Shown here piece after piece: positions 2,958 to 57,593 of a stretch of DNA of 64,000 nt. Below the pieces are notes generated by a model. That model worked only from the letters and a program-made list of their open reading frames with translations, was not told the origin of the DNA and did not search any database. Origin of the DNA: an uncultured Acidobacteriota bacterium (GTDB lineage: Bacteria > Acidobacteriota > Thermoanaerobaculia > Multivoradales > SZUA-115); contig CAWDVR010000002.1 of assembly GCA_963805975.1 (NCBI GenBank), positions 640,001 through 704,000 on the forward strand, in the 5' to 3' direction. Each line of letters opens with the position of its first letter. The first letter of the stretch is position 1. The translations under genes were made by a program, and so were the position numbers.

Positions 2958-5834
2958 TCAGGGAATCTCCAAGCTTTGCGCAAGCATACCATCGGCCCCG
3001 GTGGCCCCCGCCCCCTCTTCGGCCCGCGCCGGCAGCCACTTGAGGAAGGCGCGCAGCTCGTCGGCCGTGGGGCTCTCGGCGCGCTCCAGGAAGGTGCCCA
3101 GCGAGCCGCAGTGCAGCAGGCTCCCGCCGTGCTCGCCGCCGCCCGGCCCGAGGTCGATCACCCAGTCGGCGCGCGCCACGAGGTCCAGGCTGTGCTCCAC
3201 CACCACCACCGTGTCGCCGCGCTGCACCAACCGGCGCAGCGTGTGGTAGAGCACGTCGATGTCGGCGAGGTGGAGGCCCGTGGTCGGCTCGTCGAAGAGG
3301 AAGAGCCGCGGCTTCTCGGAGGGCGGGCGGTCGAGGAAGCTCGCGAGCTTCAGGCGCTGCGCCTCGCCGCCCGAGAGCGTGGCCGTGGGCTGACCCAGCC
3401 GCAGGTAGCCGAGGCCCACGTCCGAGAGCAGCTTCAGGCGCCGCGCCAGCCGCTTCTGGGGAGCGAAGATCCCGGTGGCCTCCTCGACCGTCAGGTCCAG
3501 CACCTCGGAGACGTTCCGGCCCTGGTAGCGCACCGCCAGCACCTCGGGCTTGAAGCGGTGCCCCTGGCACGAGTCGCAGACCACGGTCACCGGCGCCATG
3601 AACTGCATGTCCACCTCGACCACCCCCGTGCCCTTGCACACCGGGCAGCGCCCGCGGTCGACGTTGAACGAGAAGTGCGCCGCCGTGATGCGCCGCGCCC
3701 GCGCCGCGACGGTGCCGGCGAAGAGCTTCCGGATCTCGTCGTAGGCCTTGACGTAGGTGATGGGGTTCGAGCGGCTGGAACGGCCCAGCGGCCGCTGGTC
3801 GACGAGGGTGACGTCCGCCAGGTCCGCGAGGCCCGAGAGCTCGTCCACCTCCCCGGGCTCGACGTCCACCACTCCCCGCGCGCGCTGGTAGGTGCCGTAG
3901 AGCACGTTCTCGATCAGCGTCGACTTGCCCGATCCCGACACGCCGGTGACCGCCACCAGGGTGCCGAGCGGCAGCTCGACGTCCAGGTTCTTCAAGTTGT
4001 GGGCCCTGGCGCCGCGGATCCGTACTCGTGGCCGGCCCGCCAGCTCCTCTTCCAAGGTCTCCTTGCCCTGCTCGCGGCGGAAGCGCGCCACGTGCGCGCG
4101 CGCCGGGGTGGGAACACGCTCGCGCAGATAGAGGGCGGTCAGCGACTCCTCGCACTCGAGCACCCGGTCGATCGCCCCCTCGACCATTACCCGGCCGCCG
4201 TGCTCGCCGGCCTTGGGGCCCAGGTCGATCACCCAGTCCGCGCCCTGGATCAGCGTGCGGTCGTGCTCCACCACCAGCACCGTGTTGCCGCGCGCGGCGA
4301 GGTCCGAGAGCAGGGCGAGGAGGCGTTCCGAGTCGCGTGGATGGAGGCCGATGGTGGGCTCGTCGAGCACGTAGAGCGTGCTGGTCAACCCCGAGCCGAG
4401 GGCCGCCGCGAGGTGGATGCGCTGCGCCTCGCCGCCCGAGAGCGTGCGCGCCTGGCGGTCGAGGGTCAAGTAGTCGAGACCCACGCGGGAGAGCACCTCG
4501 ACGCGCTCGGCCAGCTCTGCGAGCAGGTGGCCGGAGAGCTCGCGCTGGCGCGCCGTCCACTGCCGCGCCGCGAGCCAGGCACGGAGATCCTCGACGTTCA
4601 TCGCCGTGAGCTGCGGCAGCGTGCGGCCCTCGAGCTGCACCGCCAGGGCCTCCGGCTTGAGGCGTTTGCCCCGGCAGACCGGGCAGACCTCGTAGGCGCG
4701 GTAGCGCGCCAGCAGCACGCGCACGTGGACCTTGTAGATCCGGCCCTCGAGCCAGGAGAAGAACTTCGCGAGATTGACGAACGGGCCCTCGCCGCTCCAC
4801 ACCCACTCGCGGGCCGCGTCCGGCAGCTCTTCCCAGGGCACGTCGAGCGGCACCTTGCGCCGCCGGGCGGCCTTGTAGAGGCCGTCGTAGAGATCCTCGT
4901 AGGCGGGTGAGTTCCAGACCGCGATCGGCCGCTCGCGCAGGCTCTTCTTCGGATCCGGGACCACCCGCTCGCGGTCGACCCCGATCACCCGGCCGAAGCC
5001 CTGGCACTCGGTGCAGGCGCCGAGCGGCGAGTTGAACGAGAAGAGGGCCGGCACCGGCCGCCGCGCGGTGGCGCCGCAGGTGCCGCAGACCAGATCGGTC
5101 GCGAAGTAGCGCGCGCCGTCCGGCCCCACCGCCTCGACCCGGTTGCCGGTGAGGCGGTAGCCCTCCTCCACCGCGGCGGCGATGCGTCCCGTGCTCTCGG
5201 TCGTGGCGGTGAAACGCCCCAGGGCGAGCGGCAGCGGGTCCAAGGCCTTGCGCCAGAGAGTGCCCGGCTCCATGCGCACCACCTCGTCCCCTTCGAGCCG
5301 GCGCGCCCAGCCCTGGCGGATCAGCTCGGCCAGCGCCTGGTCCGCGTGCTTCTTGGGCCGGGGAACGCGGGCCACCACCGTGAAGCGCTCTCCCGCCTCG
5401 CCGGCCGCCAGCGCGGCCGCCGCCTCCTCCGCCGCGTAGCGCCGCAGCGGGCCGTGACCGTTCGGGCAGTGGACCTCGCCCAGGTGGGTGTAGAGCAGCC
5501 GCAGCACGTCGTGCGTCTCGGTGATGGTGCCCACCGTCGAACGCGCGTTCTTGATCGCGTTCGAGGCCGCGAGCGCCACCGCCGGGAGCACGTTGTGCAC
5601 CGCCTCGACGGGCGGGCGCTCCATCTGGTCGAGGAACTGGCGGGCGTAGGTGGACATCGACTCCACGAAACGCCGCTGCCCCTCGGCATAGATGGTGTCG
5701 AAGGCGAGAGAGGACTTGCCGGCCCCCGACGGCCCGGTCACCACGGTCACCTTGCCGTGCGGCACGCGGCAGTCGATGCCCTTCAGGTTGTGCGTGCGGG
5801 CCTTGACGACCTCGATGGCGGTAGGAGTGCGCAT
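2958..5834 (-). CDS. uvrA: Excinuclease ABC subunit A (UvrA family)
   Basis: Two ABC ATPase halves (GPSGAGKSSLAFDTIYAEGQRR, GVSGSGKST), LSGGEAQR twice, CxxC zinc fingers. Confidence 0.93.
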   Translation of the reverse strand: MRTPTAIEVVKARTHNLKGIDCRVPHGKVTVVTGPSGAGKSSLAFDTIYAEGQRRFVESMSTYARQFLDQMERPPVEAVHNVLPAVALAASNAIKNARSTVGTITETHDVLRLLYTHLGEVHCPNGHGPLRRYAAEEAAAALAAGEAGERFTVVARVPRPKKHADQALAELIRQGWARRLEGDEVVRMEPGTLWRKALDPLPLALGRFTATTESTGRIAAAVEEGYRLTGNRVEAVGPDGARYFATDLVCGTCGATARRPVPALFSFNSPLGACTECQGFGRVIGVDRERVVPDPKKSLRERPIAVWNSPAYEDLYDGLYKAARRRKVPLDVPWEELPDAAREWVWSGEGPFVNLAKFFSWLEGRIYKVHVRVLLARYRAYEVCPVCRGKRLKPEALAVQLEGRTLPQLTAMNVEDLRAWLAARQWTARQRELSGHLLAELAERVEVLSRVGLDYLTLDRQARTLSGGEAQRIHLAAALGSGLTSTLYVLDEPTIGLHPRDSERLLALLSDLAARGNTVLVVEHDRTLIQGADWVIDLGPKAGEHGGRVMVEGAIDRVLECEESLTALYLRERVPTPARAHVARFRREQGKETLEEELAGRPRVRIRGARAHNLKNLDVELPLGTLVAVTGVSGSGKSTLIENVLYGTYQRARGVVDVEPGEVDELSGLADLADVTLVDQRPLGRSSRSNPITYVKAYDEIRKLFAGTVAARARRITAAHFSFNVDRGRCPVCKGTGVVEVDMQFMAPVTVVCDSCQGHRFKPEVLAVRYQGRNVSEVLDLTVEEATGIFAPQKRLARRLKLLSDVGLGYLRLGQPTATLSGGEAQRLKLASFLDRPPSEKPRLFLFDEPTTGLHLADIDVLYHTLRRLVQRGDTVVVVEHSLDLVARADWVIDLGPGGGEHGGSLLHCGSLGTFLERAESPTADELRAFLKWLPARAEEGAGATGADGMLAQSLEIP

Positions 5835-5981
5835 GCGGCGGCTCGCCCGAAGGCAAGCCGGCTATTCTAGCTCGCGGGGTGGCACGGATTGCCGCGTCAG
5901 AGCCTTGACGACACTCTCCCCGTAAGGCAAACTGTCCTACGATCCTGAGCACGACCCGTAGCACGAGCGGGCTCCCTGTCC

Positions 5982-6227
5982 ATGACCACTCTGAGCATCC
6001 GCATCCCCACCGCCCCTAACGAGAGGCTCAGCCGTAAGGCGCGCGCCGCCCGGGTGCCTCGCTCCGTCGTGGTGCGAGACGCCCTGGCGGACTTCGTAGC
6101 GCGCAAGGAGGAGGAGAGATTCATAACGGAGCTCGTCGCCGCGGCCAAGGCGCTGGCCCGGAGCCCTACCGGGTCTCTCGCCCTCGCAGAGGAGTTCCAC
6201 CGCTCGAGAACGAGGCGTTGGACCTGA
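5982..6227 (+). pseudogene. Ribbon-helix-helix (CopG-like) antitoxin, probably frameshifted/truncated at the 3' end
   Basis: MTTLSIRIP...RSVVVRDALADFV RHH pattern. A shifted frame near 6200 reads PLENEALDL and runs directly into a PemK fragment. Confidence 0.6.
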
Positions 6228-6426
6228 CCACCCAGCTTTGGCCCGCGCTGGAGCCGATCCGCGTCAGGATCCCAGCTCGCGGGCGTCTCACACAAGACTG
6301 TCACGAGATGGTCGAGCAGGTGCGGGTCGTAGACCGCCGCCTAGGTGAGGTCCTCTCACTGTGCTGACCGCCGATGAGCTGGCAGCTCTCGGACGTAGCC
6401 TGAAGGCTGTGCTAGGTCTGCGGTAG
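6224..6426 (+). pseudogene. PemK/MazF toxin remnant (no N-terminus, internal frameshift)
   Basis: Manual translation LTTQLWPALEPIRVRIPARGRLTQDCHEMVEQVRVVDRRLGE, then shifted GPLTVLTADELAALGRSLKAVLGLR*. Resembles the C-terminal half of MazF. Confidence 0.7.
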
Positions 6427-6458: not shown

Positions 6459-6959
6459 GTGGAACGAGTAGGCAAGCATCTCGCCGAGGTCGCCACTTCG
6501 AAGAGCAGCGTCGACGAGATCGACCTCTTCGCGCGCAGCGCCTTTAACCGCTTCTACTATGCCGCCTTCCTCGCCACCCGCGAGACACTACGGAAGCTGG
6601 ATGACCGTTGGAGGGAGCCCAACCATAAGGATGTTCCAGCGATTCTGCGAGGCAGAGTAGTCGACCGGGTCACAGAAGAGCTGAAGCGGCAGAGCGATGC
6701 TGGCATTCCACTCCTCCCGGGCCTGCCGCAGCTGACGCACGAGATTCACGCGGCTACCGATGCACTGGCGCAACTCCTTAAGCAAGCGTACAGCGTCCGC
6801 CGGACGGCTGACTACAAGCCGGAGGCTCGAGCGCTGAGGTCTGCGGGGATGATCATGCTTGATCAGGTCAAGCTCTCCCAGGCAGAGCATTGGCCTCGGC
6901 GCGCCAGGGCGTATGCACTGCAAATCGAGAGAGTCTATGGAAAGCTCGCGCTCCTCTAA
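6459..6959 (+). CDS. HEPN-domain protein, putative retron effector RNase
   Basis: RSAFNRFYYAAF N-terminal HEPN motif, NHKDV, and RRTADY (RxxADY-type site). First gene of the RT operon. Confidence 0.8.
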   Translation: MERVGKHLAEVATSKSSVDEIDLFARSAFNRFYYAAFLATRETLRKLDDRWREPNHKDVPAILRGRVVDRVTEELKRQSDAGIPLLPGLPQLTHEIHAATDALAQLLKQAYSVRRTADYKPEARALRSAGMIMLDQVKLSQAEHWPRRARAYALQIERVYGKLALL

Positions 6960-7698
6960 GGTCGAGGGAGTCCGCGAGCTCCTTGCGGCTAGAGGGCTCG
7001 ATTTCGTGAGCCGGATCGAACACAGCAATTCGCCCCCACCCGACCTCGTGCTCTTCGTTCCGGGTAGCCGCGTCAGCGCAGAAGCCGGGAAAGGCAAAAC
7101 GTCTCGGCGCCAACTGGCTGCGCTCGCTCGATCGATCCAGGAAAGCTTCGGCCTTACTGTGGAGTGGCTACTCTTTCAGAGCCCTGAGGACGAGACTCTC
7201 GAGCAGGATCTGAGCGCCCTTCTGGAGCACAGATTCCCAGCTACGGTCGGCCATCTCTCTGTCTCCGGGGCTGGCCTGCCGCAGCCGACCGTCTGGGTCG
7301 AGAGAGTTCCTGGTCGTAAGCCGACGATCGAGCCGGAGCAGATCCGAAAAGTCGTGGCCGAGTTCTTCGAGCTCTACCGACTCGGCTCTCCAGGCGTGGT
7401 GTTCAACGACGAAGCTCCTGAGCCGACCGGTCCGTTGATCCTTAGGGTGATCAAGCAGCATTCCCCCACGGATCCCGAGCTCTTGGAGGAGTGCCTGCGG
7501 GCAAGAGGTTTCTGGGTGCCGAAGCCCGGGGCGCTGGCAGCCAAGCTCGACCTGCTGAGGAAGAAGGGACTAGTCAGCCGGCTCGAGGATGGCTCGTATG
7601 TGCTCACGGAGGAAGCCTTGCAGATCGTCCCGCACGGTCGGTACCGCAGCAGCTCCGACATCGAGCGTGCCCTTGCTCTCGCGAAAAGGAAGTGGTAG
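6937..7698 (+). CDS. Retron-associated protein with C-terminal winged helix-turn-helix
   Basis: ATG at 6937 overlaps the HEPN 3' end. C-terminus LDLLRKKGLVSRLEDGSYVLTEEAL is a wHTH recognition helix plus wing. Confidence 0.7.
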   Translation: MESSRSSKVEGVRELLAARGLDFVSRIEHSNSPPPDLVLFVPGSRVSAEAGKGKTSRRQLAALARSIQESFGLTVEWLLFQSPEDETLEQDLSALLEHRFPATVGHLSVSGAGLPQPTVWVERVPGRKPTIEPEQIRKVVAEFFELYRLGSPGVVFNDEAPEPTGPLILRVIKQHSPTDPELLEECLRARGFWVPKPGALAAKLDLLRKKGLVSRLEDGSYVLTEEALQIVPHGRYRSSSDIERALALAKRKW

Positions 7699-7705
7699 AA
7701 GGACG

Positions 7706-7882
7706 CGAGGAATGACGGTGGAACTCTCGCGCGGGCGTGCATCACGCCCATTAGCGAAGACCGGCGAAAGAAGGTGCCTGCCCAGCGGCAGCCGCTCCTT
7801 CGAACCGCCCGCCGCTGGGCAGGCGATCGCCCTGAAAGCAGATTCAGCTTTGCTCTTCCCGTGAAACCGCCGCCATTCCTCG
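7706..7882 (+). ncRNA. Putative retron msr-msd ncRNA
   Basis: Inverted repeat CGAGGAATGACGGTGG (7706-7721) / CCGCCGCCATTCCTCG (7867-7882): 14 WC pairs, 1 GU, 1 mismatch. Hairpin GGGCGTG-cat-CACGCCC (7733-7749). Perfect 14-bp stem 7776-7789 / 7811-7824. Lies directly upstream of the RT. Confidence 0.75.
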
Positions 7883-8814
7883 TCAGCTTCCCCGACGAAA
7901 CCTCCCTCAGACAGGCTCTCACTGGCGAGTCTCAGTCCTATTGGCCGGAAGTGGAAGCGCTCCTAGAGCAACGTCTTCCGCCAGTCGTCGCCATCAGAAT
8001 CCTCGCCTGCATGTTTGGCTATAGCGCTCGTTTCGTAGGGGCTCTCCAGCGCCGCCCAGAGCGCTACTACCGCACCTTCCTAGTTCACAAAGGTAAGAAG
8101 AAGCGCGAGATCCAAGCACCAAGAGTGGCACTCAAGGTCATTCAGAAGTGGTTCGCTCACCACTTGGCGCAGGCGGTAGAGCTCGACGAGTGCGTGTTCG
8201 GCTTTGTGCCCGGGCGATCTGCCCCGCATGCGGCAGCACGCCATTGTGGAGCGAACTGGGTATACGCGATCGACCTTGCCGACTTCTTTCGATCGACGCC
8301 ACGGGAGCGCGTAGAGGCTGTGTTGCGGGATCTGGGCTACCCCTCTCATGGAGCAGACCTCGCCGCTCGCCTCTGCTGCTACGGCGACTACCTGGCGCAG
8401 GGCTCGCCAGCGAGCCCAGTGCTTTCGAACCTGGTGCTGCGCCCCTTGGATGGGAGCTTGAAGCAGATCGCCATCGACGCTGGCGCCACCTATACACGGT
8501 ACGCAGACGATCTGGTCTTCTCTGGTTCGGGCGACTTCCCAGCGGGCCTCGACGAGAGAGCTCGACAGGCGGTCGCAGAGGACGGCTGGAGGCTCGCCGA
8601 GGGCAAGGAGCATCTGGCGAAGCTTCCGCAGCGCCTCAAAGTGCACGGGCTCTTGGTGCACGGCCCACGCCCGAGGCTGACCAAAGGCTATCGAAATCGC
8701 CTGCGAGCGTTCCGGCATCTCATCGAGCACAATCGCGTCAAGGAAGAAGATCTAGGGCGCTTACAGGGGCACCTTGCGTACGCGGAGTCCGTTGAAGGCT
8801 TCAAGCCCGCGTGA
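7861..8814 (+). CDS. Retron-type reverse transcriptase
   Basis: KKREIQAP, LKVIQKW, GFVPGRS, AAARH (region X NAxxH variant), IDLADFF, LAQGSPASPVLSN, YTRYADDLVFS, LKVHGL (VTG variant). About 317 aa with no maturase/endonuclease domain. GTG 7861 preferred over 7774. Confidence 0.9.
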   Translation: MKPPPFLVSFPDETSLRQALTGESQSYWPEVEALLEQRLPPVVAIRILACMFGYSARFVGALQRRPERYYRTFLVHKGKKKREIQAPRVALKVIQKWFAHHLAQAVELDECVFGFVPGRSAPHAAARHCGANWVYAIDLADFFRSTPRERVEAVLRDLGYPSHGADLAARLCCYGDYLAQGSPASPVLSNLVLRPLDGSLKQIAIDAGATYTRYADDLVFSGSGDFPAGLDERARQAVAEDGWRLAEGKEHLAKLPQRLKVHGLLVHGPRPRLTKGYRNRLRAFRHLIEHNRVKEEDLGRLQGHLAYAESVEGFKPA

Positions 8815-8910: not shown

Positions 8911-9333
8911 TCACCGAACCCTCGTGTCGCTCCCCCAGTCCTCGACTCGGAGGCCAACGACACGCAGCATGTGCTCGAGATTGGCCGTCACCAGAACCGC
9001 GCCGGTGGCGAGAGCGTGGGCCGCGATGGCGGCATCGAAGTCCTCTATGACCCGGCCCTTCTTCTCCAGCTCCGCCTTGATCGCCCCGAAGCTCTCGCTC
9101 ACCCGGTCGGTCCACTCCGCGCGAGCCAGCTCGGAACGGATCGTCTCGAACCGCTCCTCCAGTGCCTGCCTCCGCTTGGACCGCGGCAACCGCGCCAGCC
9201 CGTACGCGATCTCCGCCAGCACGGGCTGAGGCAGCGCGACATCCGCCCGGCTGACCTGCTTCAGCCGGTCGAGGAATCCGGCCTCGCCCTTCATCAGTGC
9301 CGAGACTGCGTTCGTGTCCAGGAGGTATTTCAT
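8911..9333 (-). CDS. vapC: PIN-domain VapC toxin
   Basis: YLLDTNAVS, AEIAYG, DFDAAIAAHA, LVTAN PIN motifs. Confidence 0.88.
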   Translation of the reverse strand: MKYLLDTNAVSALMKGEAGFLDRLKQVSRADVALPQPVLAEIAYGLARLPRSKRRQALEERFETIRSELARAEWTDRVSESFGAIKAELEKKGRVIEDFDAAIAAHALATGAVLVTANLEHMLRVVGLRVEDWGSDTRVR

Positions 9334-9578
9334 AGCAGTCTTGGCGGCTTCGACCGGCGCCCGGCAGCGATCGCCGCCAGCAGCTCGTCGGCCGCCTGGC
9401 CGATCTCCGCGTTCGTCGCGCTCAGCCGCTCGAAGAAACCGGGAGACCAGTCCCCACCGCCGGCCAGCTCTCGCTCCAGAGCACGGACGATGAGGCGGTT
9501 TCTGCTCACTCCGAGGTTACGGGCCCTGCGGTCCGCGGCGTCGAGCAAAGGCCGGGGAATGTGGACGCTGGTCGACAT
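9330..9578 (-). CDS. RHH antitoxin (VapB-like)
   Basis: MSTSVHIPRPLLDAADRRARNLGVSRNRLIVRALE; 4-nt overlap with vapC. Confidence 0.8.
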   Translation of the reverse strand: MSTSVHIPRPLLDAADRRARNLGVSRNRLIVRALERELAGGGDWSPGFFERLSATNAEIGQAADELLAAIAAGRRSKPPRLL

Positions 9579-41345: not shown

Positions 41346-41468
41346 AACCGCGATTTCGCGGGCCGGGCTCGGGCCGTCTTCTCGCCTGGTAAGCCTCGCT
41401 CCACCCGCCTTGAGCTTCGGGAGGCTGCTGATCTAGAATCTATATTGAATTCTAGAAGGGAGAAGCTA

Positions 41469-41723
41469 GTGGCCCTCAGCATCAAGCATCCTGAAGCCGA
41501 CACCCTGGCCCGAGAGGTCTCCAAGCTGACCGGTGAGAGCTTGACCGAGGCTGTGGTGAGCTCTCTCAGAGAGCGTCTGCGAGTGATCCGCGGGCGTGCA
41601 TCGGCACCCCGGCTCGAGGAGGAACTGGCGGCGATCCGGCAGCGGTGCTCCACTCTGCCCGTGCTCGACTCGCGTAGCGCCGAGGAGATCCTGGGATACG
41701 ACGACCGGGGCCTGCCGCGCTGA
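41469..41723 (+). CDS. vapB: VapB antitoxin (Rv0623-like)
   Basis: [28 protein letters not shown]. Confidence 0.88.
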
Positions 41724-42121
41724 TGGTGATTGACTCCTCGGCGTTGCTGGCGATCCTTTGCGACGAGCCCGAGGCTCCGACGTTCGAGGCGGCAATCGCG
41801 GTCGATCCGGTGCGCCTGCTCTCGGCCTCTTCCTTCCTAGAGACAGCGATAGTCGTCGAGACGCGTTTCGGTGAAGCGGGCGGACGCGAGCTCGACCTCC
41901 TGATCCACAAGGCGCAAGTCGAAATCATCGCCGTCACCGCCGAGCAGGTCGAGCTGGCGCGGCAAGCATTCCGGGCCTTCGGCAAAGGCAGGCATCCCGC
42001 AGGCTTGAACTACGGCGACCTCTTCGCCTATGCACTCAGCCACGTCTCCGGCGAGCCGCTGCTCTACAAGGGCCAGGACTTCGCGAAGACCGATGTGGCT
42101 TCGGTTCACCTGCCGGCCTGA
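41723..42121 (+). CDS. vapC: VapC PIN toxin
   Basis: [27 protein letters not shown]. Confidence 0.9.
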   Translation: MVIDSSALLAILCDEPEAPTFEAAIAVDPVRLLSASSFLETAIVVETRFGEAGGRELDLLIHKAQVEIIAVTAEQVELARQAFRAFGKGRHPAGLNYGDLFAYALSHVSGEPLLYKGQDFAKTDVASVHLPA

Positions 42122-49296: not shown

Positions 49297-49626
49297 CTAT
49301 TCCGCGAACATCTCGGCCAGGATGGCCAGGATCTTCTTCTGGGTCGGAGCGCCGAGGCGACCGAGGCGGCGGACGAGCCGCGTCTTGTCGACGGTCCGTA
49401 GCTGGTCGAGCACGACCAGTCCTCCCTTATCGTCGAATGAGCAGCGCACGCGTGTTGGATACATCCGGCCGCGCGAGGTCATCGGCGCCACGATGACCGT
49501 GGCGATGTGCCGGTTCATCTCGTCCGGGGAAACTACCAGGCAGGGGTGGGTCTTCTGGATCTCGCTCCCTACCGTAGGGTCGAGGTTGACCAGAAATACC
49601 TCGAACCGCTCTACCTCCACTGCCAC
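49297..49626 (-). CDS. mazF: PemK/MazF toxin
   Basis: LDPTVGSEIQKTHPCLVVS, DQLRTVDK. Confidence 0.9.
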   Translation of the reverse strand: MAVEVERFEVFLVNLDPTVGSEIQKTHPCLVVSPDEMNRHIATVIVAPMTSRGRMYPTRVRCSFDDKGGLVVLDQLRTVDKTRLVRRLGRLGAPTQKKILAILAEMFAE

Positions 49627-56969: not shown

Positions 56970-56997
56970 TTGACTCCTATTGAAGCAGGCGTAAAAT
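56970..56997 (+). promoter_or_regulatory. Sigma70-like promoter for the SLATT-like gene
   Basis: TTGACT-N16-TAAAAT. Confidence 0.55.
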
Positions 56998-57059
56998 GCT
57001 GCCAACTACTGACATCCGAAAGCGCTTCGAGTGGGCAGCGCCCAACAAGGGGACTTCTC

Positions 57060-57593
57060 ATGGCTGACGAAAAGCGCGTGTTTACCCCTCCTGGGACGGA
57101 CCAGCTTCTCACCGGCTGGCTCATTCATTCCCACAAGGCCCGGGACAGGCATGACGAGGCAGCCCGCAGATATGCGAAGGGGCAATTTGCCTTGGGAATT
57201 CCTTCACTCATTGTTTCTACTGTCGTTGGAACGTCAGTCTTTGCGGCACTGTCCTCCAAGGAGGTTCCACCGCTGTGGGTAGGCCTGCTGAGCATCCTTG
57301 CTGCCGTGTTAGCAGCGCTGCAAACGTTTATGGACTTCGGAGGTCGATCCGACAAACATCGGAACGCAGCTGTCAAGTACAAGTCGTCCATCCGCCTGCT
57401 CGAGGAATCAATAGTTCAACAGAAGCAGGGGACAGCACTTACCAAAGAAGAGATCGCGGCCATAAGAACAGCGCTGGACAGCCTGGAAGAAACTGCTCCT
57501 GTGGTCATGCCAAGGATCTATGTCAACGTGGAGAAAAAATATCAAGACATGAAGTATGTTTCCGAAGCGATTGGTCTATACAGCAAGCAGTAG
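57060..57593 (+). CDS. SLATT-like 2TM domain protein
   Basis: W...H..AA..Y, GIP..IVSTVVGTSVF TM1, ILAAVLAALQTF TM2, H..AA..Y. GC visibly lower than the flanks. Confidence 0.7.
   Translation: MADEKRVFTPPGTDQLLTGWLIHSHKARDRHDEAARRYAKGQFALGIPSLIVSTVVGTSVFAALSSKEVPPLWVGLLSILAAVLAALQTFMDFGGRSDKHRNAAVKYKSSIRLLEESIVQQKQGTALTKEEIAAIRTALDSLEETAPVVMPRIYVNVEKKYQDMKYVSEAIGLYSKQ

Follow-up and report, generated by a model that had tools for sequence, protein, structure and literature searches.

The question raised by positions 6459-8814 of the 64-kb stretch of DNA analysed here (the window) is whether three co-oriented open reading frames (ORFs) and a non-coding gap ahead of the third make up a complete type IX retron, and whether such a system would defend its host. 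The initial annotation had read these elements, from the letters alone, as a HEPN gene, a winged-helix-turn-helix (wHTH, here WH) gene, a ncRNA and a reverse transcriptase (RT) gene. That type IX assignment and the gene roles are upheld by PADLOC, by the chains of PDB entry 36HT, by a covariance match to the ncRNA and by an RT tree, and on its sequence the locus is judged to be genuine and intact, its identification as a type IX retron being correct. We consider it very likely that it forms a complete operon which probably defends the host by abortive infection, as for Retron-Kva2, Retron-Sen3 and Retron-Yin1. Comparisons with these and other published systems draw on the portions of the cited sources available to us.

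Gene content and assignment to type IX

HEPN, WH, ncRNA and RT lie in that order on one strand, the arrangement that defines type IX, and all three ORFs are full length with no internal stops. The claim that they are less GC-biased than their surroundings was confirmed: GC is 0.61-0.64 across the retron patch vs approximately 0.70-0.75 in the flanks, and the GC3 values of the HEPN, WH and RT genes (0.71, 0.74 and 0.71) fall within the lowest 3-5% of 2732 non-overlapping ORFs in the genome, which has a median of 0.91. The motifs quoted in the initial annotation were all found, RSAFNRFYYAAF and RRTADY in the HEPN ORF and AAARH, YADD and KVHG in the RT ORF. The PADLOC search it had proposed was run, and the HEPN_IX, HTH_IX and RT_IX models are the best match of the three proteins.

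The first gene (6459..6959, + strand) has a GTG start and encodes a predicted type IX HEPN RNase effector of 166 aa, which has HEPN_IX as its only PADLOC match (2e-46) and also matches 36HT_I (4.5e-21). A frameshift at the start of this gene was suspected and ruled out, as the relatives begin at the same position and their N-termini agree with the GTG at 6459. Residues H56 and R114 align to the Kva2 catalytic residues H64 and R122, and the H and R of this pair are kept in 68/68 relatives. The protein thus has the catalytic His and Arg, non-canonical and far apart in the sequence, that mark the upstream HEPN of type IX systems; the type IX HEPN of Mestre et al. 2020 (PMC7736814) likewise does not have the canonical Rx4-6H histidine. 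F32-Y33-Y34 correspond to Kva2 Y40-42, with F in the window in place of Kva2 Y40.

The second gene (6937..7698, + strand) encodes a 253-aa protein of the KH-KH-HTH kind, with HTH_IX as its only PADLOC match (2.7e-57) and a match to 36HT_B (3.9e-16) that covers residues 31-251. Its start is most likely the ATG at 6937, which gives a 23-nt overlap with HEPN and agrees with both the database call (P0001) and the relatives. The model matches and this overlap confirm the earlier description of a C-terminal wHTH protein overlapping HEPN. Among the relatives the overlap is 8-29 nt by a nearest-start heuristic, and in the type IX description of Mestre et al. 2020 it is approximately 8 nt, vs 23 nt in the window (PMC7736814). 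An AlphaFold model of WH (pLDDT 81.6, pTM 0.54) shows a pair of alpha/beta domains and, at the C-terminus, a helical one. The best fold matches of this model are tandem-KH proteins, for example archaeal NusA, and although weak (E about 5e-4) they agree with the KH-KH-HTH description in preprint 10.64898/2026.07.14.737667. The overlapping second gene therefore appears to have the tandem KH-like domains and C-terminal winged helix of type IX. WH residues R58, R65, D205, R208, K209 and R215 match Kva2 R50, K57, D197, R200, K201 and R207, the second of these being K in Kva2 and R in the window; by the residue numbers in the Sen3 text (10.64898/2026.07.14.737667), the Sen3 tip residues D197, R200, K201 and R207 are conserved as well. 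Neither HEPN nor WH has a match in Pfam or NCBIfam.

The third gene (7861..8814, + strand) has a GTG start and encodes a retron RT of 317 aa. RT_IX (1.4e-129) is the best of 61 PADLOC models that match it, the next model reaching 2.1e-62 and RT_X 7.6e-58, and its match to 36HT_A is 3e-76. The protein begins MKPPPFLVSF, which contains the type IX N-terminal PPP segment. Two other versions of the gene, one starting at the first GTG (7774) and the other the 267-aa database call, were rejected against the relatives, which are approximately 316-327 aa long and match the GTG at 7861.

The YxDD catalytic motif of retrons is present as YADD, which is the form in 80/80 aligned type IX RTs. Taken to the letter, the classical NAxxH and VTG motifs are replaced here by AAARH and VHG, which retain H and G, the residues that are most conserved. 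The initial annotation had taken these for variants of motifs X and Y in this copy, a view that did not hold up. In 74/79 relatives an A stands in place of the N in NAxxH, the 80 aligned type IX RTs read KVHG (74) or KVYG (6) and never VTG, and the Kva2 RT itself reads AAFRH and KVHG. Since the departure is the type IX norm, the validated Kva2 included, it does not bar the protein from membership in the retrons.

Placement of the RT in a phylogeny, a second check proposed at the outset, was carried out with a careful tree of 27 rows, confined to retron RTs of types other than X: the window RT, 17 type IX RTs taken from related loci and 9 RTs from plasmids, which PADLOC places in other retron types. 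The window RT falls in the type IX clade, on the type IX side of a branch with 99/99 support relative to these nine RTs. It groups with RTs from Acidobacteriota with weak support (80/40 and 85/44), and we therefore claim no donor.

Were the RT of another class (group II intron, DGR or DRT/UG), its neighbours would be unrelated to it and the retron reading would fall. Weak NCBIfam matches point that way, one to the group II model TIGR04416 (53.7 bits, 1.8e-14) and one to the Drt2 model (33.2 bits, 3.2e-8), but they are far under the respective cut-offs of 300 and 390 and the retron models score much higher. Moreover, among PDB entries the Kva2 RT matches best and group II RTs reach only approximately 1e-4, and both the gene order and the ncRNA are shared by many phyla. 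PADLOC, PDB, the conserved neighbours and the ncRNA match rule out a group II, DGR or DRT identity, and we regard an RT of another class as barely conceivable.

The ncRNA and the predicted msDNA

The gap that precedes the RT had been described as structured and non-coding. Its structure was confirmed, positions 7704-7884 folding at -94.4 kcal/mol (z -6.1) with 0/200 shuffles as good, but the ncRNA reaches beyond the gap, approximately 25 nt into the RT gene. We built a covariance model of our own, distinct from the published type IX model, from 58 other loci with the window left out, and it identifies a type IX msr-msd ncRNA, flanks included, at 7704..7890 (+ strand; 139.2 bits, E 5.7e-35). 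This is the only match in the 64-kb window, and its 139 bits compare with 115-160 for other full copies. The model has no match in nine retron loci of other types or in one further locus (L002). A search of Rfam matched no retron family and returned two chance microRNA matches far under their gathering scores.

A normal gap between WH and RT is present in 66 loci, of which 58, excluding the window, were aligned for structure. The named structure consists of the RNAalifold helices, stem-loop 3 and one added pair. In this alignment 93.9% of cells are paired and 28/36 pairs have changed on both sides, including 15/15 pairs in family helix 4, which forms the msd. None of 500 shuffles reaches these values and slid controls pair 36-42%; both controls lean in favour of the structure, which comes from the very alignment on which they were run.

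In the window, all elements of the ncRNA lie on the + strand. The 5' arm of a closing helix (7705..7721) and its 3' arm (7866..7883), the latter inside RT codons 2-8, were found as an inverted repeat (I14) and by folding, the 5' arm corresponding to family helix 1. Within them is a 17-nt msr stem-loop (7733..7749, equivalent to Kva2 G18-C34), which was found by folding and in which helices 2 and 3 covary, and a further predicted helix (7727-7730 with 7754-7757) extends it in the fold. The 10-nt linker that follows the msr hairpin has A and G at Kva2 positions 42 and 44. The msd template would be the 74 nt at 7760..7833, its boundaries taken from the Kva2 register, which was mapped through the numbering in the text of preprint 10.64898/2026.07.14.738597 and not through the Kva2 ncRNA sequence. 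Next comes the 19-nt stem-loop 3 (7834..7852), with a predicted opposing G7834 and branching G7852 (Kva2 G121 and G139), whose equivalents are G in 57/58 and 51/58 relatives, respectively. The 17-nt msr hairpin, the 10-nt linker and the 19-nt stem-loop 3 with its two Gs are all shared with Kva2.

The predicted msdDNA, the reverse complement of 7760-7833, folds as a long hairpin (z -5.8) with the tip TCGAAGG at d31-d37; the product would measure about 74 nt, or about 69 nt once trimmed. Tip positions 31-36 are shared with Kva2: T31, G33, A34, A35 and G36 occupy the positions contacted by the Kva2 WH, and at dT31, dG33, dA34 and dG36 the base agrees with the one contacted in Kva2. By the numbers in the text, the Yin1 tip bases dT26, dG28, dA29, dG31 and dG32, together with the essential dA30, also fit the window tip. 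The locus thus has a conserved type IX ncRNA, as recognized by our covariance model, with predicted branching and opposing Gs and hairpin tip. It differs from Kva2 in the msd, which is 76 nt in Kva2 vs 74 nt in the window, and at two of the msDNA base-triple positions, where Kva2 G59 and A61 are d59 A and d61 C.

Distribution, genomic site and activity

A scan by RT alignment gave 78 genome and 5 viral loci, to which 2 plasmid loci were added for a total of 85, and 76 of these have at least 1600 nt upstream of the RT. HEPN and WH are present at the expected spacing in 64 of the 76 by tblastn and in 4 more by profile. HEPN is therefore conserved beside homologous RTs, as the initial annotation required (68/76 related loci). 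In 2 of the remaining loci transposase insertions separate HEPN and WH from the RT, and 6 show neither gene. The hosts of type IX loci include Pseudomonadota, Verrucomicrobiota, Acidobacteriota, Nitrospirota, Bacteroidota and others.

The lineage of the window had been called far from the enterobacterial models, and this stands: the named relatives of its UvrA are nearly all labelled Thermoanaerobaculia. The retron, on the other hand, has relatives in many phyla, other Acidobacteriota included. With the window's genome counted, HTH_IX occurs in 1/401 genomes of the phylum and HEPN_IX in 2/401 genomes of the class Thermoanaerobaculia, the second of which (G416) holds a complete type IX copy. 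Read by eye, that copy sits amid other predicted defence-type genes. The module was likely acquired horizontally, which fits both its low GC3 and this rarity. None of the 5 type IX rows of the SPIRE survey table (PMC13712802) is from Acidobacteriota, and the taxonomy table of the Sen3/Yin1 preprint, which spans 68 genera, may already list some Acidobacteriota. What is new here is the Thermoanaerobaculia host, the setting, with a decayed MazF-type module on one side and VapBC on the other, and an unusual alanine in WH (W199A).

The retron site is a toxin-antitoxin (TA) hotspot. Upstream and outside the retron lies a module of RHH antitoxin and MazF/PemK toxin (5982..6426, + strand; Pfam RHH_1) that is decayed by frameshifts and by a deletion of approximately 197 nt at 6223/6224; only 32 nt lie between the dead MazF-type gene and the HEPN start. 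Downstream, also outside the retron and convergent with the RT, is an intact VapBC pair (8911..9578, - strand; Pfam PIN and RHH_1), whose NCBIfam VapC matches are below the curated cut-off. At the uvrA locus of a genome of the same genus (G401), an intact copy of the RHH and MazF/PemK module is followed by 33 nt and then by only the first codons of vapC. At this place the window has 2.9 kb, which holds the retron and most of vapC. The G401 junction also cuts vapC, and this pair of genomes would fit either gain or loss at the site.

A different reading of this site is that of a module kept mainly for addiction or persistence, in which HEPN would be the toxin and WH the antitoxin, with phage sensing secondary. 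It draws on the position of the retron between two TA modules, with no evident defence island, and on the report that in Kva2 the toxicity of HEPN is lessened by WH on its own (10.64898/2026.07.14.738597). Yet the RT and ncRNA, needless for a simple two-gene TA pair, are fully conserved, the RT is needed for defence in Kva2 and Sen3 (10.64898/2026.07.14.738597, 10.64898/2026.07.14.737667), and the G416 copy has predicted defence-type genes around it. We therefore hold a primary role in addiction to be highly improbable.

Intact appearance is no proof of activity in the window copy, since other type IX copies are visibly decaying: L066 and L068 are interrupted by IS elements, L010 is frameshifted in WH and L039 has lost part of its msd. 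The locus could accordingly be a true type IX retron by descent that is silent or crippled, having lost its own promoter behind the decayed TA module or having a weakened HTH through W199A, so that assembly and defence fail. A scan for sigma-70-type promoters passed none, with 0.2 expected by chance, and the adjoining TA module is a pseudogene. In WH, A199 replaces a residue (Kva2 W191) that is W in 57/65 related loci and in 15/15 of the closest proteins. In place of the Kva2 tip contacts D190 and N193 the window WH has G and A, at two positions that vary widely in the family. Against these points, many real promoters are missed by a consensus scan, and a residue other than W is also found at the equivalent of position 199 in 8/65 relatives. 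The three ORFs are full length without stops, the HEPN catalytic pair and the four predicted DNA-tip residues of WH (D205, R208, K209 and R215) have all been retained, and the score of the ncRNA falls among those of other full copies. A silent or crippled copy is thus unlikely, and we favour a working defence system.

Proposed mechanism and relation to known retrons

The initial annotation had proposed that RT, msDNA and wHTH hold a HEPN RNase in check. By homology this model holds, and it has been demonstrated by experiment for Kva2, Sen3 and Yin1 in three preprints of 2026 (10.64898/2026.07.14.738597, PMC13405049, 10.64898/2026.07.14.737667). In these July 2026 preprints msDNA and WH cage the HEPN RNase, which is set free by phage proteins and then cuts tRNA; for Sen3 and Yin1, a ring assembly and the B14T nuclease as trigger are described (10.64898/2026.07.14.737667). 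Triggers published so far include B14T of Bas14, the exonuclease of Bas24 and D5 of T5.

We infer the corresponding steps in the window copy by homology from these three systems. The RT would prime on G7852 and copy from 7833 back to 7760 into the DNA hairpin. WH would bind the N-terminal part of the RT together with the hairpin tip of an adjacent unit, and its two KH-like domains would wrap the HEPN dimer in a ring- or sheet-like assembly, caging the active site. HEPN (H56/R114) may then be released when the hairpin is cut by a phage nuclease or bound by a phage HTH protein, and the freed enzyme would cut tRNA anticodon loops, and perhaps rRNA, so that the infected cell is arrested.

The closest characterized system is Retron-Kva2 of Klebsiella variicola (PDB 36HT; PMC13405049), which has the same gene order and whose chains are the best PDB match for the window RT, HEPN and WH. 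The two share the HEPN H/R pair, equivalents of WH R50, D197, R200, K201 and R207, and VHG with a non-N motif X in the RT. Kva2 comes from a Klebsiella host, the window copy from a likely acidobacterial one. Retron-Sen3 (Salmonella enterica) and Retron-Yin1 (Yersinia intermedia) also consist of RT, ncRNA, tandem KH-HTH and HEPN (10.64898/2026.07.14.737667), and type IX as defined by Mestre et al. 2020 (RT clade 7; PMC7736814) has the same HEPN, overlapping C-terminal winged-helix gene, ncRNA and RT.

The type IX family and its mechanism are already described, and the locus by itself answers no open question. Its value is that of a distant, high-GC type IX orthologue, which could show whether assembly into rings or sheets, the tip code TCGAAGG and triggering by nucleases or HTH mimics extend beyond the enterobacteria. 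It also supplies a natural W199A variant of WH and adds to the compact RT-ncRNA pairs on which editing tools can draw.

The pairing of 7705-7721 with RT codons 2-8 recurs in 64/66 related loci, the two misses being mis-picked starts. A tentative and rather doubtful reading is that the type IX closing helix swallows the RT start, its 5' arm covarying with the RT N-terminus, that each transcript would therefore be either an RT message or an msDNA template, and that this choice gives feedback on RT translation. The window copy might further have come under the dead MazF-type module's own promoter and RHH repressor, defence having replaced the toxin in place. The overlap of ncRNA and RT is not mentioned in the main text of the Kva2 preprint (10.64898/2026.07.14.738597), as far as that text was available to us. 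Retron-Eco11 (type III-A3; 10.1101/2024.02.09.579579), which differs in having an RT of another clade and a PRTase-like effector, likewise has an ncRNA that overlaps the 5' end of its RT gene.

A helix extending the msr hairpin and the RT subclades

The msr hairpin of the window's type IX retron is prolonged by a short helix (window 7727-7730 paired with 7754-7757) that has strong covariation: across the 58 related loci in the ncRNA alignment, one of its pairs is C-G 28 times and G-C 26 times. The site where the RT is inferred to stop lies immediately 3' of the helix. In the structure of Retron-Kva2, a solved type IX complex, the 5' strand of this helix (corresponding to window 7727-7730) is not visible; the helix may act in the precursor, where it would set termination.

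The type IX RTs of the related loci L004-L088 form two well-supported subclades, one starting MxPPP, with gaps of 150-170 nt, and one starting MRLP, with gaps of approximately 145 nt. The ncRNA 5' arm, the strand of the closing helix that pairs with RT codons 2-8, varies in step with the first RT codons of these subclades, those for MxPPP or MRLP.

Complete, joined and decaying type IX copies

A complete type IX retron with the gene order of the window is present in a second Thermoanaerobaculia genome (L114, G416:C1:2227000-2238000), and its RT is 60% identical to that of the window. By eye, the neighbouring genes resemble Fic, DNA methylase and helicase genes.

In L064, from a Roseomonas MAG, HEPN and WH lie in a single 402-aa frame (about 410-1615), while the near-identical L063 has them as separate genes. 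The joined frame could have arisen by a recent gene fusion, or it could reflect an indel in the assembly.

Several type IX copies are decaying. L020 has a transposase-like ORF upstream and its HEPN and WH are absent, L066 and L068 have insertions within or next to the ncRNA, L010 has a frameshift in WH, and the msd stem of L039 is shortened. L011, from a Binatia MAG, has a type IX RT (5001-5951, plus strand) that stands without HEPN or WH, and the ncRNA of this locus is degenerate, scoring 30.9 bits with the covariance model built from the 58 loci. A divergently oriented 383-aa gene, SIR2-like by eye, adjoins this RT (3734-4885, minus strand).

Other toxin, defence-type and RT genes in the window's genome

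The window carries a decayed RHH and MazF/PemK toxin-antitoxin module (5982-6426, plus strand). Compared with the intact copy in the same-genus genome G401, the antitoxin is cut to 81 aa by a 1-nt loss and approximately 197 nt, covering the antitoxin end and the toxin start, are gone. Small toxin or defence-type genes are also found elsewhere in the window: a VapB-like and PIN pair (41445-42121), an intact PemK/MazF toxin (49300-49626) and a SLATT_4 two-transmembrane effector gene of low GC3 (56970-57593).

Besides the retron RT, the window's genome contains a second RT match, a distant one, at L002 (G000:C4:585800-586042; E 3.7e-7 to RT_IX, the PADLOC type IX RT model), with an open frame of 551 aa.
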